NCBI GenBank assembly: GCA_016209385.1
Contig: JACQWB010000265.1
Span: forward strand, 13,977 to 77,976
Reading direction: 5' to 3'
Length of the DNA stretch: 64,000 bases
Source of the DNA: Candidatus Rokuibacteriota bacterium
GTDB taxonomy: Bacteria; Methylomirabilota; Methylomirabilia; Rokubacteriales; CSP1-6
The notes beneath the pieces were generated by a model. It was given only the letters and a program-made list of their open reading frames with translations. It had not been told where the DNA came from and made no database searches. The position numbers and the translations under genes are program-made. Each line of letters begins with the position of its first letter. The first letter of the stretch is position 1. Of this stretch, positions 6,363 to 64,000 are shown one piece after another.

Positions 6363-6370
6363 GAACCGCG

Positions 6371-8125
6371 ATGGCCGACCCCACAGTCTCCCTCTGCATG
6401 ATCGTCAAGAACGAGGCCGCGGCGCTCCCCCGCTGTCTTGGGAGCGTCGCCGGCTGGGTGGACGAGATCGTGATCGTCGACACGGGCTCGACGGATCGGA
6501 CCCCTGAGATCGCGGTCGGCTTCGGCGCCAGGGTGGTGCACTGGGCCTGGCGGGATGACTTCGCCGCGGCGCGGAACGAATCCCTCCGCCACGCGACCGG
6601 CGACTGGATCCTCGTCCTCGACGCGGACGAGGCGCTCGCCGAGGGCTGCGCGCCCCGGCTGCGCGAGCTGATCCGGAACCCCGAAGCGGTGGCGTACCTG
6701 GTCAAGATTGTCTGCCCTCGCCAGGGCGATGGCGGGCTCGTCCGCCTCAACTGGTTCCCCCGGCTCTTCCGCAATCTCCCAGGGGTGGCCTTCGAGGGCG
6801 TCATCCACGAGCAGGTCATCGGAAGCCTGGCGGGCCGCGGCAGGATCGACTACTCGGACATCATCGTGGAGCACGCGGGGTACACGCTCGCGCCGGCAGA
6901 GCTCAGCGCCAAGGGGGAGCGGAACCTTCGTCTCCTCGAGCGCCAGCTCAACGATGACCCCACCTACGCCCCGGGATGGTTCCAGCTCGCCGAGACCTAC
7001 ATGCTCCTCGGGCGAGTGGACGAGGCCATCGACGCCTACCGACGCGCGCTACGCCTGCTGGAAGTCTCCTCCCTGACGCTCTCACCCCGCGTCGTGGCTC
7101 TGGCCCTCCAGAACCTCGGTGCCGCACACCTGGCACGCGGCGATACCGAGAAGGGAATCGACCATCTCCGCGAAGCCCTCCTGCTCGACCCCGACCTGCC
7201 CCCTGCCCACGTCCACCTGGGCCTCGCTGCGCTGAGGCGCGACGACCCGGGGGAGGCGGAGAAACACTTCGCTCGCGCGCTCGAAATCGCCGACCGCCTG
7301 AATCGCGAGCAGGATCCGGGCCGCGAGTACGAGATCTCGCCGTGGTTGATCCATTACCTTCGCGCCTGCGCGTTGGGGCAGCAGGGCAAGACCGACGCGG
7401 TCCGAGACGGTCTGCTGGCGGCTCTGCGACTCAACCCGGACCACGCGGAGAGCCTGTGGCTGCTTGCGCTGGCCTGCTCGGCCCTCAAAGAGTGGCCGCA
7501 GGCGCTCGAGGCGCTCGAGGCCCTGTCACGGCAGGGGCGGGATGACCTGCCGTACCACCTTCAGCGGGTCCAGGTGCTCCAGGCCCTCGAGCGCCACGAC
7601 GAAGCCGCCGCCGCCGCGCTGAGAGCCCTGGAGCGCGGTGCGGCCTCACGAGAGGCCCTCACGCTTGCCGCTCAGGCCCTGTGCCGGGACGGGCGCTGGA
7701 GCGAGGCAGCCGACGCGTACGAGAAGCTCGCCCGGCTCGTCCCTGACAACCCCCTGCCGCTGCTGGCGCTGGCCCACTGCCGGGAGGCAATGGGCGACCG
7801 GCCCGGTGCGTTCGCCGCGTATGAGCGCGCCGCCGCGATCGCTCCCGACGCCCCGCCCGTGCTCTTCGCGCTCGGGTCCTCGTGCCTGCGCGCGGGCCAG
7901 CTCGACGAAGCCGTGGCCTGCCTCGAGGAGGCGGCCGCCCGGGGCCCTGACCGGCCCGAGTACCTGGTGAACCTGACCCTCGCTCACCTGAAGCGGGGCG
8001 ACATGACACGCGCCCGCGAGGTCCTCGCCGAGCTGAGCGCCCGCGGGAGGGACCTGCCCCAGGCTGCCGAGCTCGACCGCCTCCTCCACCGCGTCGAGTC
8101 CGCCATAGAGGAGTCCTGCCCATGA
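6371..8125 (+). CDS. GT2 glycosyltransferase with long C-terminal TPR domain (paralog of 5154..6362). The six-frame ORF 5801..8125 has a spurious N-terminal extension; the start is taken at the ATG at 6371.
   Basis: [44 protein letters not shown]...[31 protein letters not shown] is near-identical in motif order to the preceding gene. About 380 aa of TPR-like repeats follow. The start lies 9 nt after the upstream stop. Confidence 0.75.
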
Positions 8126-8877
8126 ACCGCGTGATCCACGGCACAGTCACCGTCGGCCCGGGCGTCTCGTTGGGCTGGAACGTCATCCTGCTGCAGGGGG
8201 TCGAGCTGGGCGAAGGCGTCACGATCGGCCACCACACCATCATCTACCCGGGAACCCGCATCGGCGCCCGCACCGTCATCGGCGACCACTGCGTCATCGG
8301 GCGCCGGCCCGTCACGAGCCCGGCGAGCCCACGGCACGCGAAGCAGCTCCCGCCCCTGGAGATCGGGACGGGATGCGTAATCGGAGCCTCGTGCGTGCTG
8401 GTCGCGGGATCCCGGATCGGGGACGGGGTCTTCATCGGCGATCTGGCGTCGATCGACGAACGCTGCCAGGTCAGCGACCACGTCAGCATCGGCCCGAGGG
8501 TCATGGTCGAGCCCGAGAGCTTCATCGGCGAGGCCACCGAGATCCAGGCCGGCTCCCACATCGCCGGCACCACGGTGATCGAGGACCATGTGCTTCTCGG
8601 CGCCCAGGTCACCACGGTCAACGACAACCGGATGGCCAGGGGCGGTGGACAGCGGGGGCCACGGATCCGATCGGGTGTCCGGATCGGCGCCAACGCGACG
8701 ATCCTCGGCGGCCTGACGGTCGGCGAGGACGCGGTGGTGGGCGCCGGCGCCGTCGTGCTCCGCGACGTGCCGAACTACATGGTAGCCGTCGGCGTCCCGG
8801 CCCGCGTCGTCAAAGATGTCGGCGCCGAGCAGCTGCCGACCTCGCCCGGACTTGCGATCACGATCGGCGCTCAGTGA
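8122..8877 (+). CDS. Left-handed beta-helix (hexapeptide-repeat) acetyl/acyltransferase (NeuD/PglD/WbpD-like sugar N- or O-acetyltransferase)
   Basis: Repeated [LIV]GxxxxI hexapeptide units ([55 protein letters not shown]). ATGA overlap with the upstream gene. Confidence 0.8.
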
Positions 8878-8880
8878 GAG

Positions 8881-11019
8881 GTGGCTCCCGTGTCGCCCAT
8901 GACCATCCTCACCTTTAACTGGAGCGAGCCGTTCCTCCACCTGCTGGCGAAGACCGGCCACCAGCTCGTCGTCTGCGACTGGATGCGGCCGTGGAATCCC
9001 GCCCACCGGCCGGTCGCGGCAAACATCCGCCGAGTCTCGTCGGAAGCCGACGCCCGCCAGCTCCTGGCCGACGGGCGTGTGGACTACGGGCTCGCCCTCA
9101 GGGTAGACGATCTCCTCTGGCTTGGCGAAGAGCGGACCCCGACCTTCTTTGTTGCGCGCCATCCGCTCCGCGACCAGGTGGTCGATGGGACTGCCTGGGC
9201 CGCAGGCCGTATCCGCGACCTGGTGGCGACACGTCTGGGAACGCACGGGCGGTTCGTCACAACATCCCCGCTGGTCCACCAGAGCTGGGGATTGGACGGC
9301 CCGGTGATCCCACCCGGGCTCGACCTTGCGGACTACGGCGGCTACACCGGGCACGTCCCGAGCGTGCTGAGCGTCGGTGACCCGGACGACGAGCGGGACT
9401 CGATGCCCGGCCTCGAGTTCCTCAACTCGGTGCTGTCCAACTTCTACTGGACCGTCATCCGCGTGACCCGGTTCCTCCACCACCGTGATGGAGAAGTCTG
9501 GGAGGACCTCAAGGCCGATTACCGCCGCCACCGGCTCTTTGCGTTCGCGCCCCTCGATCCCGACGCGGACGGCTACGGCCTGCCGCTGCTCGAGGCGATG
9601 GCCACAGGAATGCCCGTGGTCACGACGCCGCACCCCACCTCTCCCGTTCGCGAGGGTATCGACGGGTTCGTGGGTGAGGATCAGGAGAGCTTCGCGCGCT
9701 GGACAACCAGGCTTCTGTCGGATCCCGCCCTCGCGCACCGGCTGGGGGAGCAAGCGCGCCGGCGCGTGGCTGAGCTGTTCCCGCTCCAGGCGTTTTGTGA
9801 GCAGTGGGAGCAGGCTCTCTCGCACTGTGGTGGGGACGCCCGCGTCAAGCGTCTGCACCCCGCGGTAGACGCCTTACCGGATCAAGGCAGGACCCCCGCG
9901 ATGTCCGAGACCCGGAGGCGAGTCGTCCACCTCCGCCGCAGGCCCGAACGCCTGAAGATCCTGGTGAGCGTCGGAAACCATCCGACGCTCCCATCGGCGT
10001 ACTACGCGCGCGCGCTTCGCACGCGTCACGACGTGCTGACCTCCGGCCCGCCCCTCGATGACGAGCGGCTGGCCTCGACCCGGCAGGACCTGGAGCTGCG
10101 CAACCCGTTCAGATCGAAGGAGTCCGTCGGCGAAGCGATGGAGCTCCTCCGGCGTCTCAGACGCGCGCCCGACATCCCCATCCTGGAAAAGCACCCCCCG
10201 ATCACGGATCTCCTCGACCGGCTCCCCCGGAACTGGCGGCCGGACCTCTTCATCTGGTTCGACGACGACGTCCGCGACTTCATGCCGCAGGGGGTGGAAC
10301 GCCTCGACTGCCCCACCGCCTGCGTCATCAGCGATTTCCACATCGAGGGCCGCTTCAGGCTCGACCGCGCGCGCGCGTTCGATCACGTGTTCGTCATGTA
10401 CGACCGTCGGCACGTCCGCTACTTCGCGGAGGCCGGCTGCCGGAGCGTGCACTGGCTCCCGACCGCGTGCGATCCGGCGATCCACCGCGGCTTCGACGTC
10501 GAGAAGGCCTTCGATATCGTCTTCATCGGCCAGACCCGGCCCTCGAACAACCCCGACCGCTTCCGCCTACTGACCCGGCTCATGCGCGGTGGGTTCGACG
10601 TATTCGTGACAACCAAGTACCTGGAGGACGCGACGCTCGCCTTCTCCCGCGCGCGGATCGTCTTCAACTGCAGCCTGGTCGGCGGGCTGATCCAGCGGGT
10701 GTTCGAAGCCTGCGCCTCCGGGAGCCTCCTGCTTACCAATCGACTGGCGCCGGAAACCGGGCTCGACGAGCTGCTGCAGGACCGCGTCCACCTGGTCTGC
10801 TACGACGACCACAACTTAGACGCGCTCGCGCAGTACTACCTCGAGCATCCCGACGAGCGCGAGGCAATCGCCCGCGAAGGTCAGCGCGAGGTCCTGGCGC
10901 GCCACACGTACGCCCACCGCGTCGAGAGCCTCTTGACGGCGGTCTTCCGCCCGGCGGCGACCGTCTTACCCCCGGTGCCGACCCGTGGCGCTGTGCTCGT
11001 CCCCGTGAACGCCCCCTGA
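8881..11019 (+). CDS. CgeB-like (DUF3880 + group-1 GT-B) glycosyltransferase, 712 aa
   Basis: C-terminal 350 aa is collinear with aa 320-660 of the megaprotein (NWRPDLFIWFDDDVRDF...CPTACVISDFH...AGCRSVHWLPTACDP...RARIVFNCSLVGGLIQRVFEACASGSLLLTN...LDALAQYYLEHPDEREAIAREGQREV). The N-terminal half contains a GT-B-like E-A-M-A motif (LPLLEAMATGMPVVTTP). GTG start at 8881; an alternative ATG lies at 8899. Confidence 0.7.
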   Translation: MAPVSPMTILTFNWSEPFLHLLAKTGHQLVVCDWMRPWNPAHRPVAANIRRVSSEADARQLLADGRVDYGLALRVDDLLWLGEERTPTFFVARHPLRDQVVDGTAWAAGRIRDLVATRLGTHGRFVTTSPLVHQSWGLDGPVIPPGLDLADYGGYTGHVPSVLSVGDPDDERDSMPGLEFLNSVLSNFYWTVIRVTRFLHHRDGEVWEDLKADYRRHRLFAFAPLDPDADGYGLPLLEAMATGMPVVTTPHPTSPVREGIDGFVGEDQESFARWTTRLLSDPALAHRLGEQARRRVAELFPLQAFCEQWEQALSHCGGDARVKRLHPAVDALPDQGRTPAMSETRRRVVHLRRRPERLKILVSVGNHPTLPSAYYARALRTRHDVLTSGPPLDDERLASTRQDLELRNPFRSKESVGEAMELLRRLRRAPDIPILEKHPPITDLLDRLPRNWRPDLFIWFDDDVRDFMPQGVERLDCPTACVISDFHIEGRFRLDRARAFDHVFVMYDRRHVRYFAEAGCRSVHWLPTACDPAIHRGFDVEKAFDIVFIGQTRPSNNPDRFRLLTRLMRGGFDVFVTTKYLEDATLAFSRARIVFNCSLVGGLIQRVFEACASGSLLLTNRLAPETGLDELLQDRVHLVCYDDHNLDALAQYYLEHPDEREAIAREGQREVLARHTYAHRVESLLTAVFRPAATVLPPVPTRGAVLVPVNAP

Positions 11020-52484: not shown

Positions 52485-53350
52485 AGGGTGTAGTTCCGCT
52501 CGCGCCTGTTCCCCGGTTCGGCAAGCACGTGGGCGATGGAGACGTTCGGAGGCTCGTCCAGATACCGTGGCCGGTACCCGCTCCGCCTGAGCGTGGAGAG
52601 CGTGAGCTGGTTTTCCGAGGGATCGCCATCGAGCTCAACGACGACGAGCGGGCGGTCCTCGGCGAGAACCCGTCGCATGCCGGCCAGCACCGCCGCCTCC
52701 GCACCCTCCACGTCGATCTTGACGAACCCGACACGGGTCCCGGTCGCCTCCAGGTAGGCGTCGAGCGCGGTGGCCGGTACCTCGATGCCGTCTCCGGGGC
52801 CGTGAACGATGGAGGCGCTCCCCGTGAGCAGATGCTCGCGGCGCCGGTAGAGACGAAGCGTGCCCGTCCGGTCCGTGACCGCCATCTGCTCCAGGGTCAC
52901 ATTGGCGTACTGGTTGAGACGCACGTTCTCCCGCAGGATCACGAAATTCTCGGGGAGCGGCTCGAAGGCGATGACCCGACCCTGGGCGCCCACGAGCTTT
53001 GCCAGGAGCAGCGTGAAGTAGCCCACGTTGGCCCCGACATCCACCGCCAGCCACCCGGGACGGATAACGGCCTGTACCGCCTGGACCACCTCGCGCTCGT
53101 AGGTGCCGAAGGCGTAGCTCGCCTGCATCCGCCAGTTCACGCGCATCCGGTGCCCTTCGAGAGGGCGGGCGAGCGGGACGACGGTGAGCTGCACGGGCGC
53201 GACGAGGTCGAGGAGGCGACGCACGGCTGGCCTGAGGGGCGAGTGCCACAGCCTCTCCCGCCAGGACGCCGGCAGCTTGTCCGCCATTCGAATCAGACGA
53301 TCAATCGGCGCCATGCCAGTGTCCCGAAGCCTTTCCAGACCGCGCGCCAA
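52466..53350 (-). CDS. FkbM-family methyltransferase
   Basis: AVDVGANVGYFTLLLAKLVGAQGRVIAFEPLPENF...FVKIDVEGAEAAVLAGM is the FkbM signature. Confidence 0.75.
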   Translation of the reverse strand: MARGLERLRDTGMAPIDRLIRMADKLPASWRERLWHSPLRPAVRRLLDLVAPVQLTVVPLARPLEGHRMRVNWRMQASYAFGTYEREVVQAVQAVIRPGWLAVDVGANVGYFTLLLAKLVGAQGRVIAFEPLPENFVILRENVRLNQYANVTLEQMAVTDRTGTLRLYRRREHLLTGSASIVHGPGDGIEVPATALDAYLEATGTRVGFVKIDVEGAEAAVLAGMRRVLAEDRPLVVVELDGDPSENQLTLSTLRRSGYRPRYLDEPPNVSIAHVLAEPGNRRERNYTLCGSPS

Positions 53351-54119
53351 GCCGCCAGGCCCGCCTGAGGTAGAGGGCCAGCACTGCGCCCAGGTCGAGA
53401 GCGCTCACGGCGAAGCTCACCAGCAGAAACGCCTCCGCCTGGCCGGCGAGGACGGCCAGGAGCAGGACGACGTCGTGCCCCTGGAGATCCGTGAGGTTGT
53501 AGTAGAGGCGGTAGTACCAGCGGCCCGCGTGCCCTGTCGCGTGCCGTGCGCGCTTGTCCTCCTCCCACACCTCCCCGAAACAGAGGTGGAAGCTCTGGCG
53601 AATCTGAGGGACCAGCAACTTCAGGATCGTGGTCGCGGCCCCGACTGCCAGAATGAATTCCCCTTGGCCCGACCCGGCCGCCCGCGCGAGGCCGATGCCG
53701 AGGGCAAAGTAGGGAAGGACGAAGGCGGGGGCCGCCAGGCCGTCGAGGAAGCGACCCAACGCGTTCGACGTCCCCCGGAGCCGGGCCAGGGCGCCGTCCA
53801 CGCAGTCAAGGAGGCTGAAGAGGACGAGGAGGATGGACCCGGTCAGCAAGCCCGCGAACGACCCGTGAACCAGCAGGAGGAGGCTTGCCAGCGAAACCAG
53901 ATAGGACAGCAGTGTCAGCTCGTTCGCTGTGACCCGGGCGGGGAGGAGCCAGCACACGAAGAGCGAGGCGGGCCGATAGATGTAGGCAATCGACGGGTAA
54001 GTTCGGTCCCAGCGGCGCTTCTCGTCCGAGTAACTGGCCAGAATCGTCTCCCATCGGCTTCTCGCCTTCATCGCCACTCGCTCCCGCGGCGCGGGCAAAT
54101 GAATGACCGTCAGCGGCAT
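53301..54119 (-). CDS. CDP-alcohol phosphatidyltransferase-family membrane protein
   Basis: DCVDGALARLRGTSNALGRFLDGLAAPAF matches D-G-x2-A-R-x8-G-x3-D-x3-D. Multiple TM helices. Confidence 0.7.
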   Translation of the reverse strand: MPLTVIHLPAPRERVAMKARSRWETILASYSDEKRRWDRTYPSIAYIYRPASLFVCWLLPARVTANELTLLSYLVSLASLLLLVHGSFAGLLTGSILLVLFSLLDCVDGALARLRGTSNALGRFLDGLAAPAFVLPYFALGIGLARAAGSGQGEFILAVGAATTILKLLVPQIRQSFHLCFGEVWEEDKRARHATGHAGRWYYRLYYNLTDLQGHDVVLLLAVLAGQAEAFLLVSFAVSALDLGAVLALYLRRAWRLGARSGKASGHWHGAD

Positions 54120-55858
54120 GGTGCGTCCAACGAGGTATGGGGGTCCCGTGCCGGAACTGGCGGTGCCGAGGCGCGCGTTTCCTGGCGGTGCGAGGGATGG
54201 GCTGCGCCGTACTCATTTGCCCATGCCCGGCAGGTCCGCCGGTCGGCGCGGCGCTGGAGCAGCAGGAGCACCAAAAAGTACGGGAGCCCCGCGACAGCCA
54301 GAAGCCAGGCAAACCCGACCGGTATTCCGACGAGGCAGGCGAACACCAGGACCAGGGCGATGCTGGACATGCCGGCCACACGCCAGAGGCAGAGCGGAAG
54401 GGCCTGGAGCTCCCAGTACCTCCGCCGCCCGCTCAGGTCCACGGGGCCCAGCTCCACGAGCCGTGCCCGCCAGGGGTTCAGCCAGGTGAGCGCTTGGTGC
54501 ATGAGCCCGAGGCGAACCGCGTAGTAGCGGAACAAGAGCCCGATCAGGCGACCGCGCCAGCCTCGCCCGTGCTCGCCCGCTGACGCGACGATCCGCTCCC
54601 GACCCTCGCGGATCCCGCCACCGGCTCCCCGTTCCGCCACGCTCCGGTAGTCCTCGCTGTAGAAGTACTGGGAGGCCGTCAGGAGAAGGGCCGCCGCGAA
54701 GCTGACGGCGAGGAGTACCAGCCTGGCCGGCAAACCGAGGTCGCTCCGCCAGACCGCGAGACCAAGCGCAACGGAAACCAGGAGGAAGGTCAGGTCGTCA
54801 GACGTGTGATCCAAGACTTCTCCCCGGAGACTCGCGAGGCCTTTTGTGCGGGCAAGCTGGCCGTCGGCACAGTCCACGACGATGGCCAGCTGGAGAAGCA
54901 GGGCCCCCATGATGAGCGCGGGCCACCCCGCGAGGCTCAACAGGGTCGCCGCGGCCAGGCCGAGCAGGCAGGACACGGCGGTCAACTGGTTGGGGGTCAC
55001 CGTGGTCGGCCCGAGCCAGCGGACGATCCGATCAGCCGCCGGCCGGTTCAGGAAGCGGTCCGTGACGTCCTCGACCCGTTCCGGATATGGCCAACGCCCG
55101 CGCTCGACCACCGCCGCCGCGTGGACCACGAAGGGATCGACGAGGGGAGCCAGAAACGGGACCGCGCTCGCCCCCTGGGTGAGGCGGAGGGCCAGGCGGT
55201 AGCCGCCGAGCTTGGTCAGGACTTTGAACCCGACTGCAACCATCCGCTGGAGAGGGGTCAGCGCTGCCAGTGGCCTCAGGTTCAGGTGGAGCTGGACGGG
55301 AACCGCGCGTGCCTCGGGAAAGACCCGTCGGACATGATCGAGGAACGCGCCCGGCGTCTGGAAGTCATGGCCTGGCCAGTACCACCCCGACCGCCCGGCG
55401 GGCACAATCCTGCTAGTGACCAGGATGGTGGGCTGCCGCCCGTTCGCGCCGTCCACGATCCGCCTCAGCACACGCTGGCTATCCTCGGGCGCCAGCCAGT
55501 AGATCGCATCGAGCCAGCAGATCAGCTCGAAGCGCGTGAACCAGTCCGAGGGCAACTCCCGCACGTCGCCGGCCTGGAACGAGACGGTCGGGAGCTTCAG
55601 CCGCGCCCGCTCGATCACCCGGCTTGACAAATCAAGGCCGGTGACCTTTTCGGCGACCCGGCAGAGTCGGGCGGCGAAATCTCCCTCCCCGCAAGCCAGA
55701 TCCACCGCTGTCCTGACGGGCTCGCGCGGCAGGAGGCGCTCGAGTTCGGCGTACCGGACCCGCTTCTCCGGTATCGTCCGGGCGCCCCAGGGGTCCTCCT
55801 GCCTCCGGTAGAGGGCGTCCAGAGCTTCCTGTGTGCTGGGGAGGGGATCGGCGGTCAT
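54110..55858 (-). CDS. Fusion of a class I SAM methyltransferase (N-terminus) with a CDP-alcohol phosphatidyltransferase (C-terminus)
   Basis: N-terminal VDLACGEGDFAARLCR...ICWLDAIYWL. C-terminal DCADGQLARTKGLASLRGEVLDHTSDDL. Start at the ATG giving MTADPLPST; the track ORF is extended to 55957. Confidence 0.7.
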   Translation of the reverse strand: MTADPLPSTQEALDALYRRQEDPWGARTIPEKRVRYAELERLLPREPVRTAVDLACGEGDFAARLCRVAEKVTGLDLSSRVIERARLKLPTVSFQAGDVRELPSDWFTRFELICWLDAIYWLAPEDSQRVLRRIVDGANGRQPTILVTSRIVPAGRSGWYWPGHDFQTPGAFLDHVRRVFPEARAVPVQLHLNLRPLAALTPLQRMVAVGFKVLTKLGGYRLALRLTQGASAVPFLAPLVDPFVVHAAAVVERGRWPYPERVEDVTDRFLNRPAADRIVRWLGPTTVTPNQLTAVSCLLGLAAATLLSLAGWPALIMGALLLQLAIVVDCADGQLARTKGLASLRGEVLDHTSDDLTFLLVSVALGLAVWRSDLGLPARLVLLAVSFAAALLLTASQYFYSEDYRSVAERGAGGGIREGRERIVASAGEHGRGWRGRLIGLLFRYYAVRLGLMHQALTWLNPWRARLVELGPVDLSGRRRYWELQALPLCLWRVAGMSSIALVLVFACLVGIPVGFAWLLAVAGLPYFLVLLLLQRRADRRTCRAWANEYGAAHPSHRQETRASAPPVPARDPHTSLDAPCR

Positions 55859-57033
55859 CGCCTCCCCCAGTTCCGGATCGCCTCCAGGAAGAGCCCCTCC
55901 ATTCGCTCGGCCACATGGGCCCACGAGTAGCGGGCTTCCACGAAGCGCCGGCCCCATGTTCCGAGCGCGTACCGCTTGGCCTGGTCCGCCAGAAGCTCCG
56001 ACACCGCATCGGCCAGGGCATGGGGATCGTCCGGTGGAACCGCCATGGCCGCCCGGCTCTCCCGAATCAGCTCGGCGAGGTCAGGGAGGTCGCTGGCCAC
56101 CACCGGCCGCGCGCAGGCCCAGTAGTCGAAGAGCTTCAACGGCGAGGTGGGCCCGCGGCGCGCGACCATCGGGGCCAGGGCCACGTCCATGGCATTGATG
56201 CAGAGGGGCACCTGCCGGTAAGGCACCTGCCCGGTGAAGCGAAACGCCGCGCTCAGCCCCTTCGCCCGCACCATGCCTTCCCAGGCCGGGCGCATCTCGC
56301 CATCGCCCACGAGGAGGAAGAGCGCGCGGGGGCAGCGCTCCAGGATGGAGGGCGCGGCTTCGATCAGGGTCTGGAGACCCTGGTAGCCGAAAAACGTTCC
56401 CGCGAACCCCACCGTCGGACGGTCAGGCTCGAGACCGATCCGCTCGCGGGCCAGCGCGGGAGGGACGGGTCGCATCTGCTCCAGGTTCGCGCCGTTCGGC
56501 AGGACCCTGATCTTTTCCGCCGGGAGCCCGTACCGGTTCCTCAGGACACGGCCGAGCTCCTCGGAGACGGCCGCGACGAAGTCCGCTCTGGGGAGGATTG
56601 ACCGGTAGAACGCCCTGGCCCATGCCGCCCTGACCCGGTGGCCGCCGAGCTCCGCGTGATGCGCGGAATCGCCGTTCAGCTCGAAGATGAGCGGGCGCCG
56701 GAGGAGCCGGGCGAGGAGCAACGGAGCGGGCGAGAGACCGCCGGTGACGTAAATGAGATCCGGGCGGGCCGCGCGCGCGGTCCAGAGTGCGCTCACGAGG
56801 AAGAGAAGCTGGACGAGGAGCGGCCGAAGCCCGGGCAGATCGAGGAACGGAAGCCGCACCACCTCAGCGCTGGTCTCCTCCGGTGTCCGCGTAAGCCTCG
56901 GGCAGAAGACGATGACCCGGTGCCCCCGCCGCCCCAGAGCTTCTGCCTTTTCCCAGGTCGCCCGAAAGCCGCCCATGTCGCACCGGACGCGCCGATCGTA
57001 CTGATAGGAGAGCCAGAAGATCGTGAGCCTCAT
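55855..57033 (-). CDS. GT4 (group 1) glycosyltransferase
   Basis: MRLTIFWLSYQYD...GHRVIVFCP...a C-terminal GT-B motif. ATGA overlap with the upstream gene. Confidence 0.8.
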   Translation of the reverse strand: MRLTIFWLSYQYDRRVRCDMGGFRATWEKAEALGRRGHRVIVFCPRLTRTPEETSAEVVRLPFLDLPGLRPLLVQLLFLVSALWTARAARPDLIYVTGGLSPAPLLLARLLRRPLIFELNGDSAHHAELGGHRVRAAWARAFYRSILPRADFVAAVSEELGRVLRNRYGLPAEKIRVLPNGANLEQMRPVPPALARERIGLEPDRPTVGFAGTFFGYQGLQTLIEAAPSILERCPRALFLLVGDGEMRPAWEGMVRAKGLSAAFRFTGQVPYRQVPLCINAMDVALAPMVARRGPTSPLKLFDYWACARPVVASDLPDLAELIRESRAAMAVPPDDPHALADAVSELLADQAKRYALGTWGRRFVEARYSWAHVAERMEGLFLEAIRNWGRR

Positions 57034-58433
57034 CGGACCTGTCTCCGGACCTCTGGCCTCGACGCCGGCGCGGGAGGCAGACGCTCCACCTCCGGGATCA
57101 TCACGACCATCCCGGCCAGAAACCAGAACGGCTCCATGATCCGCACGATGATGAACGTGTTCGCGCCGATGGAGTGAGCAACCAGGGCGACGAGACCGGC
57201 CAGGAAGCCCAGGGCCACGCCCTTGAACAGCGGGTCCCGGGTCGTCTTGAGGATGGAGCGGGTCTGGCGGAGCAGGCTGAACTGAAGCCAGAGGAAGGCT
57301 GACAGCCCGACGAGGCCGGTCTCCACGAGGACCCGGGGATACTGGGCGTCGATGAAGCGGTAGCCGGTGACGCCGTAGCCGAACAGGGGATGGGCGGTCC
57401 AGTCCTCGAAGAACGCCTGGCGCCAGTCCCTCAGCCGGGCCGACGTGGAGGTGTCGAGGCGGACCTCGCCGAGCTGGACCTGCTCCGAGTGGAACGGCTG
57501 GGTGATGGTGTAGAGGACGCGGTCGACCACCGCCTTCGGGGTCACGACCGGCAACAGCGCCAGCGCGAGCGCGAAGAGCGCGGCCAGGAAGCGCTTTCGC
57601 TCGCTCCAGGCAAACAGCGCGCCGGCCAATGCGATCAGGGCGAGATAGGAGGCCCGCGAGAGGGTGAAGAGCAGCGGGAGGAGGATCAGGGCAGCCGAGC
57701 CGGCGAGCAGGACCTTCCTCCGGAGAGAGTCGCTCGTGAGGTAGAGCCCCGCGACGACAGCGAGCATCAGGACTAGATATCCGCCGAACGTGTTCGGCTC
57801 GCCCCTCGATCCCTCGAAGGGCGCGGAGACCCGGCCGCCCGACGGGATCTGGAGGATGCCGATCAGGGCTGACACGGCGGCCGTGGACAGGAGGGCGACG
57901 AGAAAGCGCTCGTACTGTCTCCGCTCGCGGAGGTTGTTGACCACCATGAAATAGATCACGACGTACTGGACGTACTTCAGGACGAAGAGGGCGCCCGCCA
58001 GGATCTTCACCTGCCCCAGGATCATCCCCAGGCCTGTCGCGAAGAAGGCGGCGAACGTGTACGCGGCGATCTGCCGGTTGAGCGGCGTCCTGAAGAGGAG
58101 GCCGAGCTCCTTGTACAGCGCCGTCTTCCCGAGCCAGGCCAGGCCGACGACGGCGAGGAGGAGGTCGTCCAGGCGAAAGGTGAGGCCCCGTCCCAGCCCC
58201 GCCTCCGCGCCGAGCTCGCCCAGGATCACCTCCGGGCCGAGCAGCATGGAGAAGATCAGGAGATAGAGGGCCAGCTCGTTGCTGGCGGCGGCGATGATCA
58301 GGACCGCGAGGCTGAGCCCGACCCCCAAAGCGGCGGGCACGGACAGCTTGGCCAGGACAGCGCTCATCAGGACGGCGAGGGAGACGGCGGCGAGCAGCGA
58401 CCCCGCCGTTGCGGTCTCCGCCTGCATCCGCAT
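57030..58433 (-). CDS. O-antigen ligase/polymerase-family (Wzy/WaaL-like) membrane protein
   Basis: Ten or more TM helices, with a large periplasmic loop near aa 300-360. It sits between the BY-kinase and a GT4, as in EPS loci. Confidence 0.65.
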   Translation of the reverse strand: MRMQAETATAGSLLAAVSLAVLMSAVLAKLSVPAALGVGLSLAVLIIAAASNELALYLLIFSMLLGPEVILGELGAEAGLGRGLTFRLDDLLLAVVGLAWLGKTALYKELGLLFRTPLNRQIAAYTFAAFFATGLGMILGQVKILAGALFVLKYVQYVVIYFMVVNNLRERRQYERFLVALLSTAAVSALIGILQIPSGGRVSAPFEGSRGEPNTFGGYLVLMLAVVAGLYLTSDSLRRKVLLAGSAALILLPLLFTLSRASYLALIALAGALFAWSERKRFLAALFALALALLPVVTPKAVVDRVLYTITQPFHSEQVQLGEVRLDTSTSARLRDWRQAFFEDWTAHPLFGYGVTGYRFIDAQYPRVLVETGLVGLSAFLWLQFSLLRQTRSILKTTRDPLFKGVALGFLAGLVALVAHSIGANTFIIVRIMEPFWFLAGMVVMIPEVERLPPAPASRPEVRRQVR

Positions 58434-58434
58434 G

Positions 58435-61131
58435 TCAGCGCCCCGAGGCTCGGCTAACGACCCGGAATCCCTCGACCTCCCCGTCCAGGATCAGATCCCA
58501 CCCGAACACCTCGGCTTCTCCACGAGTGTGAAACGCGCCGACCAGGACCCGCCACCAGCGGTCATCGCCCAAGGTCCGCACCTCGCTGACGGCCGCCCGC
58601 AGGCCCTCAGCCCGGTATCGGGCGACGTGCCGGTCGGCGTTTGCCCTTGTCCGGAAGACGCCAACCTGGACTGCGTAGGTGGGTCGCTCTGGCCCCTTGG
58701 GCCTCTCGGGGTCATCGGATCTGCGGAGGTCCGGGGATGGCTCGGCCTGAGCCGGGACCTCCACGCGTGCGCGCGCGACGGGCACCGGAGGGGCGGTACC
58801 CGGGCTGGCCGAGTCCGCCAGCTCCCTCGAGTCGGGAAAGAGGTCGAACTCGCCGGCCCACCAGGCCCAAACCCCCGCCGTAAGGGCCAGGAGAAACAGC
58901 GGCGCCAGCACCACCGCTCCCACGACACTCTTGCGGTGCGAGGCCAAAAGACTCGCCCAGCCCGTGGCAGGGGCGGGTCGCCGGCTCCTATCGCCGTACC
59001 GGTAGCGGTAGTAGGCCATCTCGGCATAGTCCGGGCTGACCTCCGCCCTCACCCCGGTCAGGCACACGCCGACGATGCGAGCCCGCGCCGCCTGCAGCAG
59101 GGTCTTCGCCCGTCTGAGGGCGGCTCGGGCGGCGCTTCCGACGCGAACGACAACGAGCGTCCCGTCGACGCGCGAGCCGAGGATCGCGGGATCAGCGACC
59201 GGCAGGACCGGCGCACAGTCGAGCACGACGTAGTCGTACCGCTGGCGGACCTCGTCCAGGAGGTTTGTCACTCCTTCGGTGCTCAAGAACTCCGTGGGGT
59301 TCGGGGGCTGGCGGCCGCTCGGGAGCAGGAAGAGGTTGTCGATGCCCCGCCGGTCGACGAGGCCCTCCACGCCCGCAACCCCGAGGACGAAGTCGGGGAA
59401 GCCCCGGATCGCCTCCTCGAGCCGGGCGTTGCCGACCAGCACCTCCGTCAGCCCGGGGTCCTTCGGGATCCCGAAGGCGTGGTGGAGGAACGGGTTCCGA
59501 AGATCGGCCTCCACGAGGAGGGTCCGTTTGCCGAGTTGGCTCAGGGCGATCGCCAGGTTGATAGCGACCGTGGTCTTGCCCTCCATCTGGGTCGAGCTCG
59601 TCACCATGATGGTTTTGGAGCCGCCCTCGAGCCCCGAAAAGAGGAGGTTGGTCCGAAGGCCCCGGAAGGCCTCGGCGATCCGGGATGCCGGAAGGAAGAG
59701 GCTGATCAAGAACCCGTAGCGTTCCTCGGTCGCCTTGTCGAGGACCACCGCCTCACCCTTTTCCTCGGACAGCGCCGCCCGGACGTCGAGATGGGGGATC
59801 ACGCCGAGCACGGACGTCTCCAGGAGCGACTCCACCTCGTCGATGGCGCCGATCGAAGTGTCGAGCGTCTCGACGACGAAGGCGAGAACGAACCCGACGA
59901 CGATGCCAATGACGAGCCCGACGGCGGCTTTCGGCACCGCCTGCGGTGCGTTGATCGGGCGAAGCGGCCCCACCGCCGGCCTGACGAGGCTCACCTCCCC
60001 GACCTGCTCCTTCTCTTTGATCAGGGTCTCCTGATGCTTCTCCTTCAGGAGCGAAAAGATGCGCTCGCTGACCTTCACCTCCCGCTCCATCCGGGCGATC
60101 TCGAGGGCCGCCTCGGGAATGGTGGCCTGCTGCTGCTTCAGGCGGCCGATGCTCCGCCCCAGCTCGTCCGCCCGGGCCTGCAACGCCTGGACCCTGCCGG
60201 TCAAGGCTTCCCGCAGCTTCTCACGGACATTGGCGATCCGGGCGTCGAGCTGTTTCACCTGGGGATGGGCGGGGAGGAAGGAGAGCAGCAGGTTTTCCCG
60301 CTCGAGCGTGAGGTCGGACAGGGACGCGTAGAGCTTGGCCTGGGCCGGGTCGGCGGCGTCGGGCGAGAGCTCCGTCGGGCGCGCCGGCGACTTCCCGTCT
60401 CCGAGCAGCCTGACCTGCGCCTCCGTTTCGCCCACGGCCCGCCTGACCCTCGCGTAGTCCACCTCGAGGCCAGCGAGGCGGTTCAGGATCCCTTTGGTCT
60501 CTTCCGGCAGCAGGAGGATCGCGTTGGCCTCCTGATACGCTTTCAGCCCGTCCTCGGACTGCCGGAGCTTTGCGCCGACCCCCTCGAGCTGCTTCTCGAT
60601 GAACTCCCGCGCCTCCCGGACCTGCCGGTTGCGCGTCGCGTAGTTGTCCTCGCGGAACGCCTCGGCCAGGCTGTTGGCGATCCGCACCGCGTCGTCGGGA
60701 TCGGGGGCGGTCGCGCTGATCTCGATGAGGTTGGTGGCCTCGACCCGTTTCACCTCCACCTGGTCCTGGAGGTCCTGGAGCACCTGGAGATAGGCGGGCG
60801 TCGCCTGGATCCGTTCCGCAGTGGCGTCCCCAGGGATGAGCCCCAGTTTCTTGGCGGCCGCGCTCATGACCGGGAAGCCCTTGATCAGGGCGGCCTGGGT
60901 GCCCAGGTTCCCATCCGGGTTGTACGCGACGAGCTCCTGGAGGAGCCCGGTGACGCTGAGAGCCCGCTCCACCCGCACGACCGCCGTCGCTCGATAGAGG
61001 GGCGTGGGGGCCTGGAGGAACGCCAGCGTGAAGGAGAAGACGCCGAAGAGGAGCGGGACGAGGATGACGATCCCCCGCCGGCGGCGGAGGATCCTGAAAT
61101 AATCTCTGAGGTTGATGTCGTACTGGGCCAT
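58435..61131 (-). CDS. Wzc-like polysaccharide co-polymerase / BY tyrosine autokinase with a C-terminal SPOR-like extension
   Basis: MAQYDINLRDYFRILRRRRGIVIL is a typical Wzc N-terminus, followed by a long periplasmic coiled coil. Walker A SSTQMEGKTTVAINLAIALSQ. Walker A' VEADLRNP. Walker B VVLDCAPVLPVAD. The final ~80 aa (PTYAVQVGVFRTRANADRHVARYRAEGLRAAVSEV...WWRVLVGAF) are SPOR-like. Confidence 0.8.
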   Translation of the reverse strand: MAQYDINLRDYFRILRRRRGIVILVPLLFGVFSFTLAFLQAPTPLYRATAVVRVERALSVTGLLQELVAYNPDGNLGTQAALIKGFPVMSAAAKKLGLIPGDATAERIQATPAYLQVLQDLQDQVEVKRVEATNLIEISATAPDPDDAVRIANSLAEAFREDNYATRNRQVREAREFIEKQLEGVGAKLRQSEDGLKAYQEANAILLLPEETKGILNRLAGLEVDYARVRRAVGETEAQVRLLGDGKSPARPTELSPDAADPAQAKLYASLSDLTLERENLLLSFLPAHPQVKQLDARIANVREKLREALTGRVQALQARADELGRSIGRLKQQQATIPEAALEIARMEREVKVSERIFSLLKEKHQETLIKEKEQVGEVSLVRPAVGPLRPINAPQAVPKAAVGLVIGIVVGFVLAFVVETLDTSIGAIDEVESLLETSVLGVIPHLDVRAALSEEKGEAVVLDKATEERYGFLISLFLPASRIAEAFRGLRTNLLFSGLEGGSKTIMVTSSTQMEGKTTVAINLAIALSQLGKRTLLVEADLRNPFLHHAFGIPKDPGLTEVLVGNARLEEAIRGFPDFVLGVAGVEGLVDRRGIDNLFLLPSGRQPPNPTEFLSTEGVTNLLDEVRQRYDYVVLDCAPVLPVADPAILGSRVDGTLVVVRVGSAARAALRRAKTLLQAARARIVGVCLTGVRAEVSPDYAEMAYYRYRYGDRSRRPAPATGWASLLASHRKSVVGAVVLAPLFLLALTAGVWAWWAGEFDLFPDSRELADSASPGTAPPVPVARARVEVPAQAEPSPDLRRSDDPERPKGPERPTYAVQVGVFRTRANADRHVARYRAEGLRAAVSEVRTLGDDRWWRVLVGAFHTRGEAEVFGWDLILDGEVEGFRVVSRASGR

Positions 61132-61138
61132 GCGCCCC

Positions 61139-62200
61139 TCAGCGGGCCACGGTCCCCAGCAGCTGGATCTGCAAGGGAATCGACAGGGGAAGGGCGAGGA
61201 ACTCGAGCGTGGGCCGGAGCTTGGCGAGGAACGCGTTCCAGTTCCCGATGGGGCTCCGCGGCAGCAGGACGAGATCGTTCGCCTGAAGCGGGATGTCCTG
61301 GCTCTGGTCTCCCTGTTCGATCACCTGGCGGAAATCGACCTCCACGACACGAGGGTTGTTCAGGCTCCCGCGTACGATGCGGGCGCTCCTCAGGACCGCG
61401 ACCGCCGTCGGCCCGCCCGCCTGAGCCAGGGCCTGCGAGAGGCGCATGTCCGGCATCAGCGGAAAGGCCCCGGGGGTCTTGACCTCGCCAAGGACAAAGA
61501 CCTTCTTCTCGTCCGCCGGACCGCGGGGTGGGATGAACACCACGTCTCCCGCGTCGAGGACGAAGTCGCGGATGGCGTGGCCGTCGGAGAGGAGGTGGAA
61601 GAGGTTGACGGCGAGCGAGCCGCCGTCCTGGCGGAGCACGCGTACCCGCTCCAGGTTCGCGTTGGGCGCGGGGCCGCCGGCTTCGGCCAGGAGATCCAGG
61701 AGGGTGGTTCGCCCCTTCAGGGGGAACGATCCGGCCTTCCCGCCCACAGCCCCGAGCACAGCGCCGCGCTTGCTGTTGTATTCCCTGACGAGCACCTCAA
61801 CGCTCAGCTGCCTGTAAAATGGGCTCAGGATCCGGCGGATCTCCTCGGCAGCCTGGTCCGTTGTCCGCCCGCCCACCTTCGCCTCGAGGAAGGCGACGCT
61901 CACCATCCCGTTCGCCTTCACCGCGGCCGTCTGCCGTTCCTGGGCCAGCCCCCGCGTCAGCAGGATCTCCACGAGGTCACCGGGCCCGATCTTGTATTGA
62001 GGGACCCCGTTGAGGGTCACGAAGGTCTGATTCTCCGTCACGGGCTGGGGGAGCGGCGACGCTGCCTGGGCCTCGGCCGCGGCCGGCAGCGGGACGGTCA
62101 GGGCGTCCGTGGCCCGGGGAGGCGGAGGGAGCTGAGCCGCACAGGCCGAGCCCAGCAGGAGCAGCACCGCGAGCAGGCACACGTTCCGACACGCGTTCAC
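61139..62200 (-). CDS. Wza/GumB-like outer-membrane polysaccharide export protein
   Basis: Signal peptide ending LLLGSAC, a possible lipobox. Poly_export block YKIGPGDLVEILL and an SLBB-like repeat. Confidence 0.8.
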   Translation of the reverse strand: MNACRNVCLLAVLLLLGSACAAQLPPPPRATDALTVPLPAAAEAQAASPLPQPVTENQTFVTLNGVPQYKIGPGDLVEILLTRGLAQERQTAAVKANGMVSVAFLEAKVGGRTTDQAAEEIRRILSPFYRQLSVEVLVREYNSKRGAVLGAVGGKAGSFPLKGRTTLLDLLAEAGGPAPNANLERVRVLRQDGGSLAVNLFHLLSDGHAIRDFVLDAGDVVFIPPRGPADEKKVFVLGEVKTPGAFPLMPDMRLSQALAQAGGPTAVAVLRSARIVRGSLNNPRVVEVDFRQVIEQGDQSQDIPLQANDLVLLPRSPIGNWNAFLAKLRPTLEFLALPLSIPLQIQLLGTVAR

Positions 62201-63294
62201 GGGAGGGCCTCCTCAGCGACGGAGTCCTCGATCTGGTGGAGGGGGCTCTGGCGGAGGTCGACCACCACGGGCTCCTCGAGCCAGCTCCCTCGGCGGACCA
62301 CGAGGGCCACGACCGGACGGAGCGGGACATCCTTGTTCGTCCTCACGACGCGCGCGATCTCCCCTGTGTTCAGGCGGACCAGGCTCCCCACCGGGAACAT
62401 GGACAGCGACCGGATCAACGCCTTGAGGATCCGGTCGGGGAGAGTTGCCCGCTCGCGCTGGAGGATCTCCCCGAGGCCCTCCAGGGGCCCGCGGAAGGGC
62501 CGACGATGGACCAGGCTCGCGTAGAGCCCCGCCAGGCGGATGATCGCGGCGTACTCGTCCATCCGGTCTTCGGAGTGGCGCGGGCGTTCCGCCTTCTGGT
62601 AGAGCTTCTCGACGACCTCGGCCAGCCAGGCGTACTGGGGCCCGAGCTGCCTCAGCCGCTTCGCGCCGTCGCGGCGGTGGGTCTCGACGAGGGCCCGTTC
62701 GGCCGCGGCCAAGGGCTCCCGCATCCCCACCACTTCCCGCGGCGTCCAGGCCGTCCCGATGTCCGCGAGCAATGCGGCCAGGCCCAGCTTGTACAGCTCC
62801 TCCGGAGCGTAGCCCAGCTCGAGCCCCATCTTGAGCGACAGGATGCAGACGTTGACCGCCTCCCGCGCCGGGCTCCGCGACAGGCCGCCTGCGGCGAAGA
62901 ACGGGACCAGTAGGGCATCACCGGTCTCCAGGTTCTGGAGCAGGCTCTCCACCGTCTTTCCAGCGCCGGCGATGGGAAAGTCGGCAGCGTTCCTGGCCGT
63001 CTCCAGGAGATCTTCCACGGTCTCCACCGCGGCCTGGAGCACCCGGCTGGCGGCCTCAAAATCCTCCAGCCGGGGACTGCCTCGGTCGGGCTTCGGCAGG
63101 CTTGAGGGCTGATCAGGCACCGGGCCGGAATCCGCGCACGGGGCCGGGGGCGGCCCGCGGTCTGGCGGCGGAGACGCCGGCTCCAGCCGCCGGCGGAGCA
63201 GGTCGCTGAGCCTGCGGGAGCCCGTACTGACCTCGCGCGGAGGCCCGCCGGGCTGCTGCCCGCCGCGCCGGACGATGTCGCTCAGCCTCGCCAT
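62197..63294 (-). CDS. HD-GYP-like domain protein with a degenerate HD motif, a probable c-di-GMP-related regulator
   Basis: VNVCILSLKMGLELGYAPEELYKLGLAALLADIGT aligns with the HD-GYP block HxxxVAxL...LLHDIGK, but has N/A in place of H and D. The N-terminal 80 aa are Pro-rich. Confidence 0.45.
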   Translation of the reverse strand: MARLSDIVRRGGQQPGGPPREVSTGSRRLSDLLRRRLEPASPPPDRGPPPAPCADSGPVPDQPSSLPKPDRGSPRLEDFEAASRVLQAAVETVEDLLETARNAADFPIAGAGKTVESLLQNLETGDALLVPFFAAGGLSRSPAREAVNVCILSLKMGLELGYAPEELYKLGLAALLADIGTAWTPREVVGMREPLAAAERALVETHRRDGAKRLRQLGPQYAWLAEVVEKLYQKAERPRHSEDRMDEYAAIIRLAGLYASLVHRRPFRGPLEGLGEILQRERATLPDRILKALIRSLSMFPVGSLVRLNTGEIARVVRTNKDVPLRPVVALVVRRGSWLEEPVVVDLRQSPLHQIEDSVAEEALP

Positions 63295-63305: not shown

Positions 63306-64000
63306 CTACACAAAGGCCAGGGCCGCCTCCACCACGGAGGCGTCCACCGCTTCGGCTCGTCGCTTCCAGCCGTCGTAGAGGCAGAGGTCGCAGAGGTTGT
63401 TGATGCTGCGCGGGATACCGCCCGTCTCGCGGTAGACCAGGTCCATGGCCTGGTCCGTGAAGATCGGCGCCGTCGCCCCGGCTTTCTTCAAGCGAAACGT
63501 GATATAGAAGGCGGTCTCCTCCGGGTTGAGAAAGCTCAGGTTGAGGCGGAAGGCAATCCGCTGGTTCAGCGAGGGCAACCTGGCGAGCCGCGTCCGCAGT
63601 TCGGGCAGCCCGAGCAGGATCAGCGAGAGGAGGTAGCGGTCGTTGAGCTGAAAATTCAGGAGCATCCGCAGGTCTTCGAAGACCGCTTCATCCGCGATCG
63701 TCTGCGCCTCGTCGACGATGAGGACCGTCGCAGCTCCCCGCTCGGCGTTGGCCAGGAGGTGATCAGCGAGCGCGCGGAGGAGGACGGATCGGTGGGGGCT
63801 GGGACGGGAGAGGCCAAGCTGCAGGGCGATCTCATGGAGCAGATCCCGCCCCGCCAGGGCGGGGTTGATGACGAGCCCGACGTCGTACTTGCTCGCGTCG
63901 AGTTGCGAGAGGAAGACACGGCCCAAGGTGCTCTTGCCGCACCCGACCTCGCCGGTGAGCAGCGCGGCACCCTTGCCGTGGTCGACGACATACGGGAGCC
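63306..64000 (-). CDS. ExeA/GspA-like AAA ATPase (the kind associated with exosortase/PEP-CTERM EPS loci). The N-terminus lies beyond the window end.
   Basis: Walker A LLTGEVGCGKSTLGRV. Walker B TVLIVDEAQT. The frame is open to base 64000. The track M at 63926 is an alternative-start artefact. Confidence 0.7.
   Translation of the reverse strand, partial: LPYVVDHGKGAALLTGEVGCGKSTLGRVFLSQLDASKYDVGLVINPALAGRDLLHEIALQLGLSRPSPHRSVLLRALADHLLANAERGAATVLIVDEAQTIADEAVFEDLRMLLNFQLNDRYLLSLILLGLPELRTRLARLPSLNQRIAFRLNLSFLNPEETAFYITFRLKKAGATAPIFTDQAMDLVYRETGGIPRSINNLCDLCLYDGWKRRAEAVDASVVEAALAFV

Follow-up and report, generated by a model that had tools for sequence, protein, structure and literature searches.

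A Wzc-like tyrosine autokinase with a predicted third transmembrane helix and a C-terminal SPOR domain in a polysaccharide locus of Candidatus Rokuibacteriota

How can a cytoplasmic tyrosine kinase of polysaccharide export end in a SPOR domain, a module that works in the periplasm? The question is raised by one gene in a 64,000-nt window (the whole stretch of DNA analysed here) of contig JACQWB010000265.1 (assembly GCA_016209385.1), from a Candidatus Rokuibacteriota bacterium. A single uninterrupted minus-strand open reading frame (ORF), 58435..61131, encodes a protein of 898 residues, called Wzc-SPOR below; NCBI holds an identical protein under the name 'MAG: polysaccharide biosynthesis tyrosine autokinase [Candidatus Rokubacteria bacterium]', where MAG stands for metagenome-assembled genome. 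The original prediction was drawn from the span 58435-59100, which corresponds to residues 677-898, and both peptides that it quoted lie in this ORF. It described a Wzc-like bacterial tyrosine kinase (BY-kinase) with a SPOR-like extension, found the combination topologically odd and left a choice between an extra transmembrane (TM) pass and a domain of some other kind. We consider it probable, with moderate confidence, that Wzc-SPOR anchors or localises the Wza-Wzc exporter of exopolysaccharide (EPS) on denuded peptidoglycan; we infer glycan binding, this role and the topology from the features described below. The gene and the parts of its product, in which PCP stands for polysaccharide co-polymerase, are as follows.

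58435..61131, minus strand: wzc-SPOR gene, 898-aa PCP-2a/BY-kinase with a C-terminal TM3-linker-SPOR module (ORF; Pfam Wzz, GNVR, AAA_31 and SPOR; match to 7NHR)
61015..61071, minus strand: TM1, residues 21-39 (Kyte-Doolittle peak 2.64; 6 K/R in the 15 preceding residues)
59929..61014, minus strand: periplasmic co-polymerase domain, residues 40-401, containing Wzz and GNVR (Pfam; alignment with the Wzc periplasmic region)
59872..59928, minus strand: TM2, residues 402-420 (Kyte-Doolittle peak 2.94)
59032..59724, minus strand: cytoplasmic BY-kinase domain, about residues 470-700 (TIGR01007; alignment to Wzc/CapB/Etk structures)
58996..59028, minus strand: tyrosine cluster YAEMAYYRYRY with Y702, Y707, Y708, Y710 and Y712 (aligns with the Wzc C-terminal tyrosine cluster)
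58858..58926, minus strand: TM3, residues 736-758, with a predicted cytoplasm-to-periplasm orientation (Kyte-Doolittle 2.47; AlphaFold2 helix; positive-inside bias)
58687..58857, minus strand: disordered Pro/Ala/Asp/Glu-rich linker, predicted periplasmic, residues 759-815 (pLDDT below 50; composition; unalignable between homologues)
58450..58686, minus strand: SPOR domain, residues 816-894; its predicted glycan contacts are Q822, W859 and R861 (PF05036; AlphaFold2; Foldseek; FtsN mapping; conservation)

Pfam recognises Wzz at residues 5-58, GNVR at 344-419, AAA_31 at 508-664 and SPOR (PF05036) at 817-874, the last with an E-value of 4.6e-13 and a score of 49.7 bits, the gathering cutoff being 21. 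When the end of the protein is compared with PF05036 separately, a check that the original prediction had proposed, the last 99 residues match it at 55.5 bits; the FtsN and DedD C-terminal models of NCBIfam match the tail weakly. AlphaFold2, given the 208 C-terminal residues and an alignment of 17 homologous tails, returned a long helix at residues 725-758 (predicted local distance difference test, pLDDT, up to 91), a disordered linker at 759-815 (pLDDT below 50) and a compact beta-alpha-beta-beta-alpha-beta domain at 818-894, modelled with a pLDDT of 95-98. In the numbering of that tail, the strands (E) and helices (H) of the predicted domain are E128-136, H139-151, E156-162, E168-177, H180-192 and E200-204, the order expected of the RNP-like SPOR fold with its antiparallel sheet of four strands. 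A Foldseek comparison of the model with the PDB placed SPOR structures on top, namely CwlC (1x60), DedD (6ztg) and the RlpA SPOR domain (6i05/6i09), the latter with a TM-score of 0.73 and a root-mean-square deviation of 2.4 A over 76 columns; DamX (2lfv) ranked lower, and the other matches were generic ferredoxin-like or ACT folds with weaker E-values. By phmmer, the SPOR segment found CwlC alone among PDB sequences, and weakly, so that the fold comparison was needed for the link to SPOR structures.

SPOR domains bind glycan strands that amidases have freed of stem peptides and that are enriched at the septum; all characterised SPOR domains bind such denuded peptidoglycan, according to PMC6895207 and 10.1101/2022.07.01.498525. 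Localisation of FtsN to the septum requires five residues (Q251, S254, W283, R285 and I313), two of which, Q251 and R285, have been proposed as contacts of N-acetylmuramic acid (MurNAc), and in RlpA the conserved sheet residues Q270 and R309 serve denuded-glycan binding like the FtsN set (PMC6895207). When the FtsN sequence of the E. coli K-12 record was aligned to a hidden Markov model (HMM) of the present family, Q251, W283 and R285 fell on Q822, W859 and R861. The closest 120 database homologues come from Rokubacteria, Methylomirabilota or NC10 wherever a source is named. A full SPOR domain is present in 35 of these 120, with 2 more in which it is split by an insertion, and the Q, W and R positions are kept in 31, 26 and 32 of the 35 full domains, respectively. 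Judged by profile match and predicted fold together, the C-terminal tail holds a genuine SPOR domain, a feature far beyond chance. The description of a Wzc-like BY-kinase with a C-terminal SPOR-like domain thus stands, and the idea that the domain might be something else is contradicted by the Pfam score, the fold and the key residues.

The remainder of the protein looks like a complete Wzc. The N-terminal PCP module has TM1, the periplasmic Wzz/GNVR domain and TM2 according to Pfam and hydropathy. The kinase region scores 161.4 bits against a cutoff of 108.05 with TIGR01007, the NCBIfam model of polysaccharide tyrosine autokinases, and its Walker A (SSTQMEGKTT, 512-521), Walker A' (LLVEADLRNP, 538-547) and Walker B (YVVLDCAPV, 634-642) motifs align with the corresponding segments of E. 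coli Wzc. The cryo-electron microscopy (cryo-EM) structure of E. coli K30 Wzc (7NHR) is matched with an E-value of 6.6e-43, from the periplasmic domain through the C-terminal tyrosine cluster. Five tyrosines lie within residues 702-712, so that this cluster is internal in Wzc-SPOR and not C-terminal, and 54 of the 69 homologues that bear TM3 also have five in the corresponding 16-residue window. With its Walker A/A'/B motifs and five-tyrosine cluster, the kinase is intact as far as motifs can tell. The equivalog cutoffs of E. coli Wzc and Etk in NCBIfam are far from reached (PRK11519, 196 versus 1068; PRK09841, 195 versus 1248), so that by its scores Wzc-SPOR is a distant member of the wider BY-kinase family and not a Wzc orthologue. 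No low-molecular-weight protein tyrosine phosphatase of the Wzb type was seen among the neighbouring genes scanned, a scan that was not aimed at the whole window.

Between kinase and SPOR domain lies the hydrophobic stretch VVGAVVLAPLFLLALTAGVWAWW, residues 736-758, in which the original prediction suspected an additional membrane pass. This suspicion is supported by hydropathy, the modelled helix and a positive-inside charge bias, the topology itself being a prediction. Three peaks of TM grade appear in a 19-residue Kyte-Doolittle scan, at 21-39 (2.64), 402-420 (2.94) and 736-754 (2.47). RSRR...HRKS stands ahead of the third peak, and acidic residues come after it; in the 69 TM3-bearing homologues, K/R number 3.7 on average among the 15 residues on the N-terminal side of the helix and 1.7 among the 15 on its C-terminal side. 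This bias supports the prediction that TM3 exits the cytoplasm and places the SPOR domain in the periplasm. The predicted topology would then comprise three TM segments, with the N-terminus in the cytoplasm, the co-polymerase domain in the periplasm, the kinase and its tyrosine cluster in the cytoplasm, and the SPOR domain in the periplasm again. Beyond the end of its tyrosine cluster, Wzc-SPOR has 180 residues more than E. coli Wzc, which are TM3, the 57-residue linker and the SPOR domain; once they are viewed as one predicted TM-linker-SPOR module, the topological puzzle of a SPOR domain on a cytoplasmic kinase is dissolved.

The position of TM3 might also speak for a role in kinase regulation. 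The tyrosine cluster (702-712) stands about 24 residues before the helix, the spacing between a PDY motif and TM3 is held at 27-50 residues across the 69 homologues, and TM3 is more widespread than SPOR among homologues, suggesting that a tether is valuable by itself. Moreover, in solved Wzc, with which the protein aligns (7NHR), the free C-terminal tail is the substrate of trans-phosphorylation, a mechanism known from the cryo-EM work on Wzc. TM3 and SPOR could therefore pin the tyrosine-rich tail, gating its access to the active site of the neighbouring protomer, so that autophosphorylation, oligomer cycling and EPS export would respond to peptidoglycan state or the cell cycle. We regard this explanation as unlikely: it leaves a glycan-binding SPOR domain with conserved contacts at the periplasmic end unexplained, and it is compatible with anchoring of the exporter rather than exclusive of it. 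Because TM3 lies about 24 residues past the tyrosine cluster, it is conceivable, but in our view quite improbable, that the two ideas meet in a sensor of wall state, in which binding of SPOR to septal or new-pole glycan would pull or immobilise TM3 and so gate trans-autophosphorylation and octamer cycling. If true, EPS polymerisation and export would be switched in space and time by peptidoglycan remodelling, through a direct mechanical or allosteric link between wall turnover and a BY-kinase that is undescribed for any such kinase.

The source of the gene is a MAG, and at about 69% G+C spurious long ORFs are frequent; an ORF of 1067 aa, for instance, runs antisense to wzc at 58279-61482 on the plus strand, among many long overlapping ORFs nearby. 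Since G+C is as high as about 69% (68-69% throughout the window), we consider these long antisense ORFs spurious and not genes. A frameshift, a mis-assembly or a gene-calling error could in principle have joined a separate SPOR gene to wzc. However, dozens of independent contigs, drawn from different samples and databases, show the same frame of kinase, TM3 and SPOR, there is neither a stop codon between the parts nor a separate start, and no relative examined has the SPOR part as a separate gene beside wzc. The recurrence of the frame on many independent contigs led us to reject a gene-fusion artefact, which is next to impossible.

This recurrence was followed in two further searches. A scan of GTDB species representatives with one narrow peptide pattern, E[VLI]SPDY[AE][EN][ML], which covers this clade only, found the full tail in 6 of 16 loci. 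A profile of the tail was also searched against 1.84 billion representatives at 50% identity, and the best 150 matches were examined. Among these, P0002, P0091 and 26 further representatives have both a kinase domain and SPOR, and a hydrophobic segment lies between the two in 25 of the 26; of 27 kinase-bearing hits in this set, one is a fragment without SPOR. The layout of kinase and SPOR is thus held by at least 28 clusters at 50% identity, mostly from Methylomirabilota. Two clusters include NCBI proteins from MAGs that are placed in other lineages, one in Candidatus Latescibacterota and one in 'Spirochaetes', placements in which MAG binning can err. In the Latescibacterota MAG, the pair of wza and wzc-SPOR sits within an unrelated neighbourhood, and this different gene context argues that the pair may be kept as a unit. 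The architecture had been called unusual for a Wzc. It is so in comparison with the solved or characterised Wzc, Etk and CapAB, whose chains all stop at the tyrosine cluster. It is no isolated case, though, being present repeatedly in Methylomirabilota/Rokubacteria and also in at least one further candidate phylum.

Other proteins met in these searches deserve mention. The Wza-like partner in the Latescibacterota MAG (GCA_003644685.1; L018 2976-4796 and L019 2825-4774) carries N-terminal FG-GAP repeats in addition to Poly_export and SLBB, which is unusual for an outer-membrane polysaccharide export protein. Among the best matches of the tail profile are also giant proteins without a kinase domain, P0128 (3187 aa), P0136 (4487 aa) and P0123 (1505 aa), which have eight tandem C-terminal SPOR-like repeats.

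The loci of Methylomirabilota share the order AAA_22 ATPase, HD protein, wza, wzc, wzy and differ in the end of wzc. The forms found are the following.

wzc of about 746 aa: without TM3, stopping exactly at the TM3 start, juxtamembrane motif kept
wzc of about 780-790 aa: TM3 and a short stub
wzc of 830-880 aa: TM3, linker and a reduced beta-beta-alpha-beta 'half-SPOR'
wzc of about 900 aa: full SPOR, the class of the gene at 58435..61131
wzc of 1000-1078 aa: a longer linker and SPOR, mostly followed by a second, weaker SPOR-like segment

Forms with TM3 and a stub are frequent. In the shortest form, P0016, P0020, P0033 and P0045 (744-748 aa, without SPOR) keep the motif PSPGW..LKxKLK and end exactly before TM3, as if truncated from an ancestor that bore it. 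Pfam finds no SPOR in the 830-880-aa homologues, in which the family HMM and AlphaFold2 reveal a beta-beta-alpha-beta remnant. This half-SPOR (P0051-P0120; for example residues 810-860 of P0079) is without helix 1 and strand 2, is modelled with a pLDDT of 84-96, and has its Q and R glycan-contact positions replaced. On the complete NC10 chromosome OY970067.1 (L012), two wzc paralogues flank wza, at 3928-6939 and 8314-10545; the first encodes 1003 aa with TM3 and SPOR, the second 743 aa with neither, which suggests that tailed and untailed Wzc have divided roles there.

Five forms of the wzc 3' end in one syntenic locus, from none to a double SPOR-like end, together with 746-aa forms that end exactly at the TM3 start, could mean that the TM3-SPOR tail was gained by fusion, contributes little and is repeatedly lost, as a near-neutral or decaying appendage. 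We give this only a small chance. Between species, full-SPOR proteins share about 50% identity in this domain, whereas their linkers are unalignable; about 90% of the full domains retain the glycan-contact residues, and the architecture extends over the at least 28 clusters, into another candidate phylum. Lineage-specific adaptation would likewise yield gain and loss of the module.

The surroundings of the gene give this tail its functional context. wzc-SPOR lies within a minus-strand polysaccharide operon of about 26 kb, and its nearest neighbours are listed here.

57030..58433, minus strand: downstream gene for a Wzy_C/O-antigen-ligase-like polymerase (Pfam Wzy_C; syntenic)
61139..62200, minus strand: upstream wza-like outer-membrane polysaccharide export gene (Pfam Poly_export and SLBB; syntenic in loci L001-L016)
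62197-63294, minus strand: HD_5-domain protein, upstream of wza (syntenic across the phylum; duplicated in L005 and L010)
63306-63926, minus strand: ExeA/PEP-CTERM-ATPase-like AAA_22 protein, upstream of wza (syntenic across the phylum)

The ATG of wzy follows the wzc stop after 1 nt (junction TGAcATG), and the two genes are translationally coupled. The ORF of the AAA_22 protein is probably incomplete, owing to the start-codon call or the window end; the idea that this ExeA-like ATPase might carry a peptidoglycan-binding domain of its own, like ExeA of Aeromonas, was rejected, its L011 relative having only 264 aa. Past wzy, the operon continues with GT4 and GT2 glycosyltransferases, methyltransferases, two CDP-alcohol phosphatidyltransferase proteins, an asparagine-synthase-type amidotransferase, a sugar aminotransferase and a WecA-like initiating transferase. 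One of its ORFs has a weak match to the SpoVB family (MOP/Wzx-type flippases) that is far below the cutoff (32 bits versus 372). By its gene content, the locus is a Wzx/Wzy-type EPS locus. We use this label and not that of an XrtA/PEP-CTERM system, which was rejected because all PEP-CTERM models remain below cutoff (best matches: ATPase TIGR03015, TyrKin TIGR03018, ChnLen TIGR03007, export TIGR03027, amidotransferase TIGR03108 and stp2) and the ORFs scanned included no exosortase.

In the same operon, a 615-aa fusion of an S-adenosylmethionine-dependent methyltransferase and a CDP-alcohol phosphatidyltransferase (54110-55957, minus strand) precedes a further CDP-alcohol phosphatidyltransferase, similar to (archaetidyl)inositol-phosphate synthase (53301-54119, minus strand). 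These two genes are unusual in an EPS operon and hint at a polymer that may be modified with lipid or polyol phosphate. Neither tRNA genes nor Rfam families at the gathering threshold were found in the whole 64-kb window (1-64000).

The locus bears on another explanation, in which SPOR would bind the nascent exported polysaccharide or another periplasmic glycan and thereby guide the polymer or measure its length. The natural SPOR ligand is a peptide-free glycan of amino sugars, the WecA-like transferase, sugar aminotransferase and amidotransferase of the locus make an EPS with amino sugars probable, and the tail is attached to a protein that determines chain length. Nevertheless, we find binding of the product improbable, given that the characterised SPOR domains all bind denuded peptidoglycan (PMC6895207; 10.1101/2022.07.01.498525) and that the conserved Q and R are proposed to contact the lactyl carboxylate of MurNAc, which is specific to peptidoglycan (PMC6895207). 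The long disordered linker would also suit reach to the sacculus better than the Wzc lumen.

Anchoring or localisation of the exporter on denuded peptidoglycan is the explanation that we prefer. A module like that of DedD or FtsN would have been fused in frame to the cytoplasmic C-terminus of a Wzc that otherwise functions as co-polymerase and autokinase. The 57-residue linker, about 20 nm when fully extended, would be long enough to lead from the inner membrane to the sacculus, where SPOR would bind glycan strands denuded by amidases. Such binding would anchor the trans-envelope Wza-Wzc exporter to the wall, and sites of denuded glycan, that is septa and new poles, might recruit it, so that EPS machines would be installed or held at defined places.

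Several points weigh against this proposal. The equivalent of FtsN S254 is a Val in Wzc-SPOR, and that of I313 is unplaced because the alignment leaves out FtsN beta4. The tail is evolutionarily dispensable, since syntenic orthologues are tailless (746 aa), have TM3 with a stub or end in a half-SPOR. With about 24 residues between tyrosine cluster and TM3, the tether might serve regulation of the kinase and not wall anchoring. Finally, the whole case rests on predictions, and the source organism is uncultured.

How Wza-Wzc exporters cross the peptidoglycan and are positioned in it is unsettled, and we know of no dedicated wall-binding component for them. The in-frame SPOR fusion may be read as a 'Rosetta-stone' hint at contact between these exporters and the sacculus, perhaps where septal glycan is denuded. 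The fusion would also indicate that a BY-kinase tolerates a membrane-tethered tyrosine-rich tail, which constrains models of trans-autophosphorylation. Our study thus documents, in Methylomirabilota/Rokubacteria, a subclass of Wzc with three TM segments and a modular C-terminus predicted to be periplasmic. A search of the full-text literature found no published description of a SPOR or other peptidoglycan-binding domain on a Wzc or PCP protein, and a paper on BY-kinase phylogenomics (PMC4007543) mentions neither SPOR nor peptidoglycan. Automated labels of such proteins read 'tyrosine autokinase', 'GumC family' or 'SPOR domain-containing', so the domain match as such is already in databases. 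What we regard as new is a Wzc with three TM segments and a DedD-like SPOR tail, predicted to be periplasmic, and not the SPOR domain label.

Compared with known systems, Wzc-SPOR resembles E. coli Wzc and Etk (7NHR, 3LA6, 3CIO) in its two TM segments around a periplasmic Wzz/GNVR domain, its P-loop kinase and its tyrosine cluster, and its gene likewise adjoins wza in a Wzx/Wzy-type polysaccharide locus. Wzc and Etk end a few residues past the tyrosine cluster, whereas Wzc-SPOR continues for 180 residues. This continuation resembles E. coli DedD, FtsN and DamX in having a basic stretch predicted to be cytoplasmic, a TM segment predicted to run from inside to outside, a long Pro-rich linker of low complexity and a C-terminal SPOR domain with Q, W and R; it has no FtsN-like essential (E) domain, and in sequence it is only distantly similar to the SPOR domains of E. 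coli. DedD, FtsN and DamX are free-standing bitopic proteins, whereas here the module is fused to the end of a polysaccharide-export kinase. A peptidoglycan-binding module that anchors an envelope-spanning machine, or draws it to septal wall material, is also known from the AMIN domains of PilQ, the LysM domains of FimV and TsaP, TagL of the type VI secretion system and ExeA of the type II secretion system (PMC5285504, PMC10653833, PMC2572700), and PilQ, whose AMIN domains recruit the machine of the type IVa pilus to peptidoglycan of the septum (PMC5285504, PMC10653833), is conceptually the nearest precedent. Wzc-SPOR differs from these in the module, which is SPOR in place of AMIN, LysM, OmpA-like or PG_binding_1, in the machine, which is that of Wza-Wzc export, and in the carrier, an inner-membrane kinase that would present its SPOR domain by way of an added TM helix.

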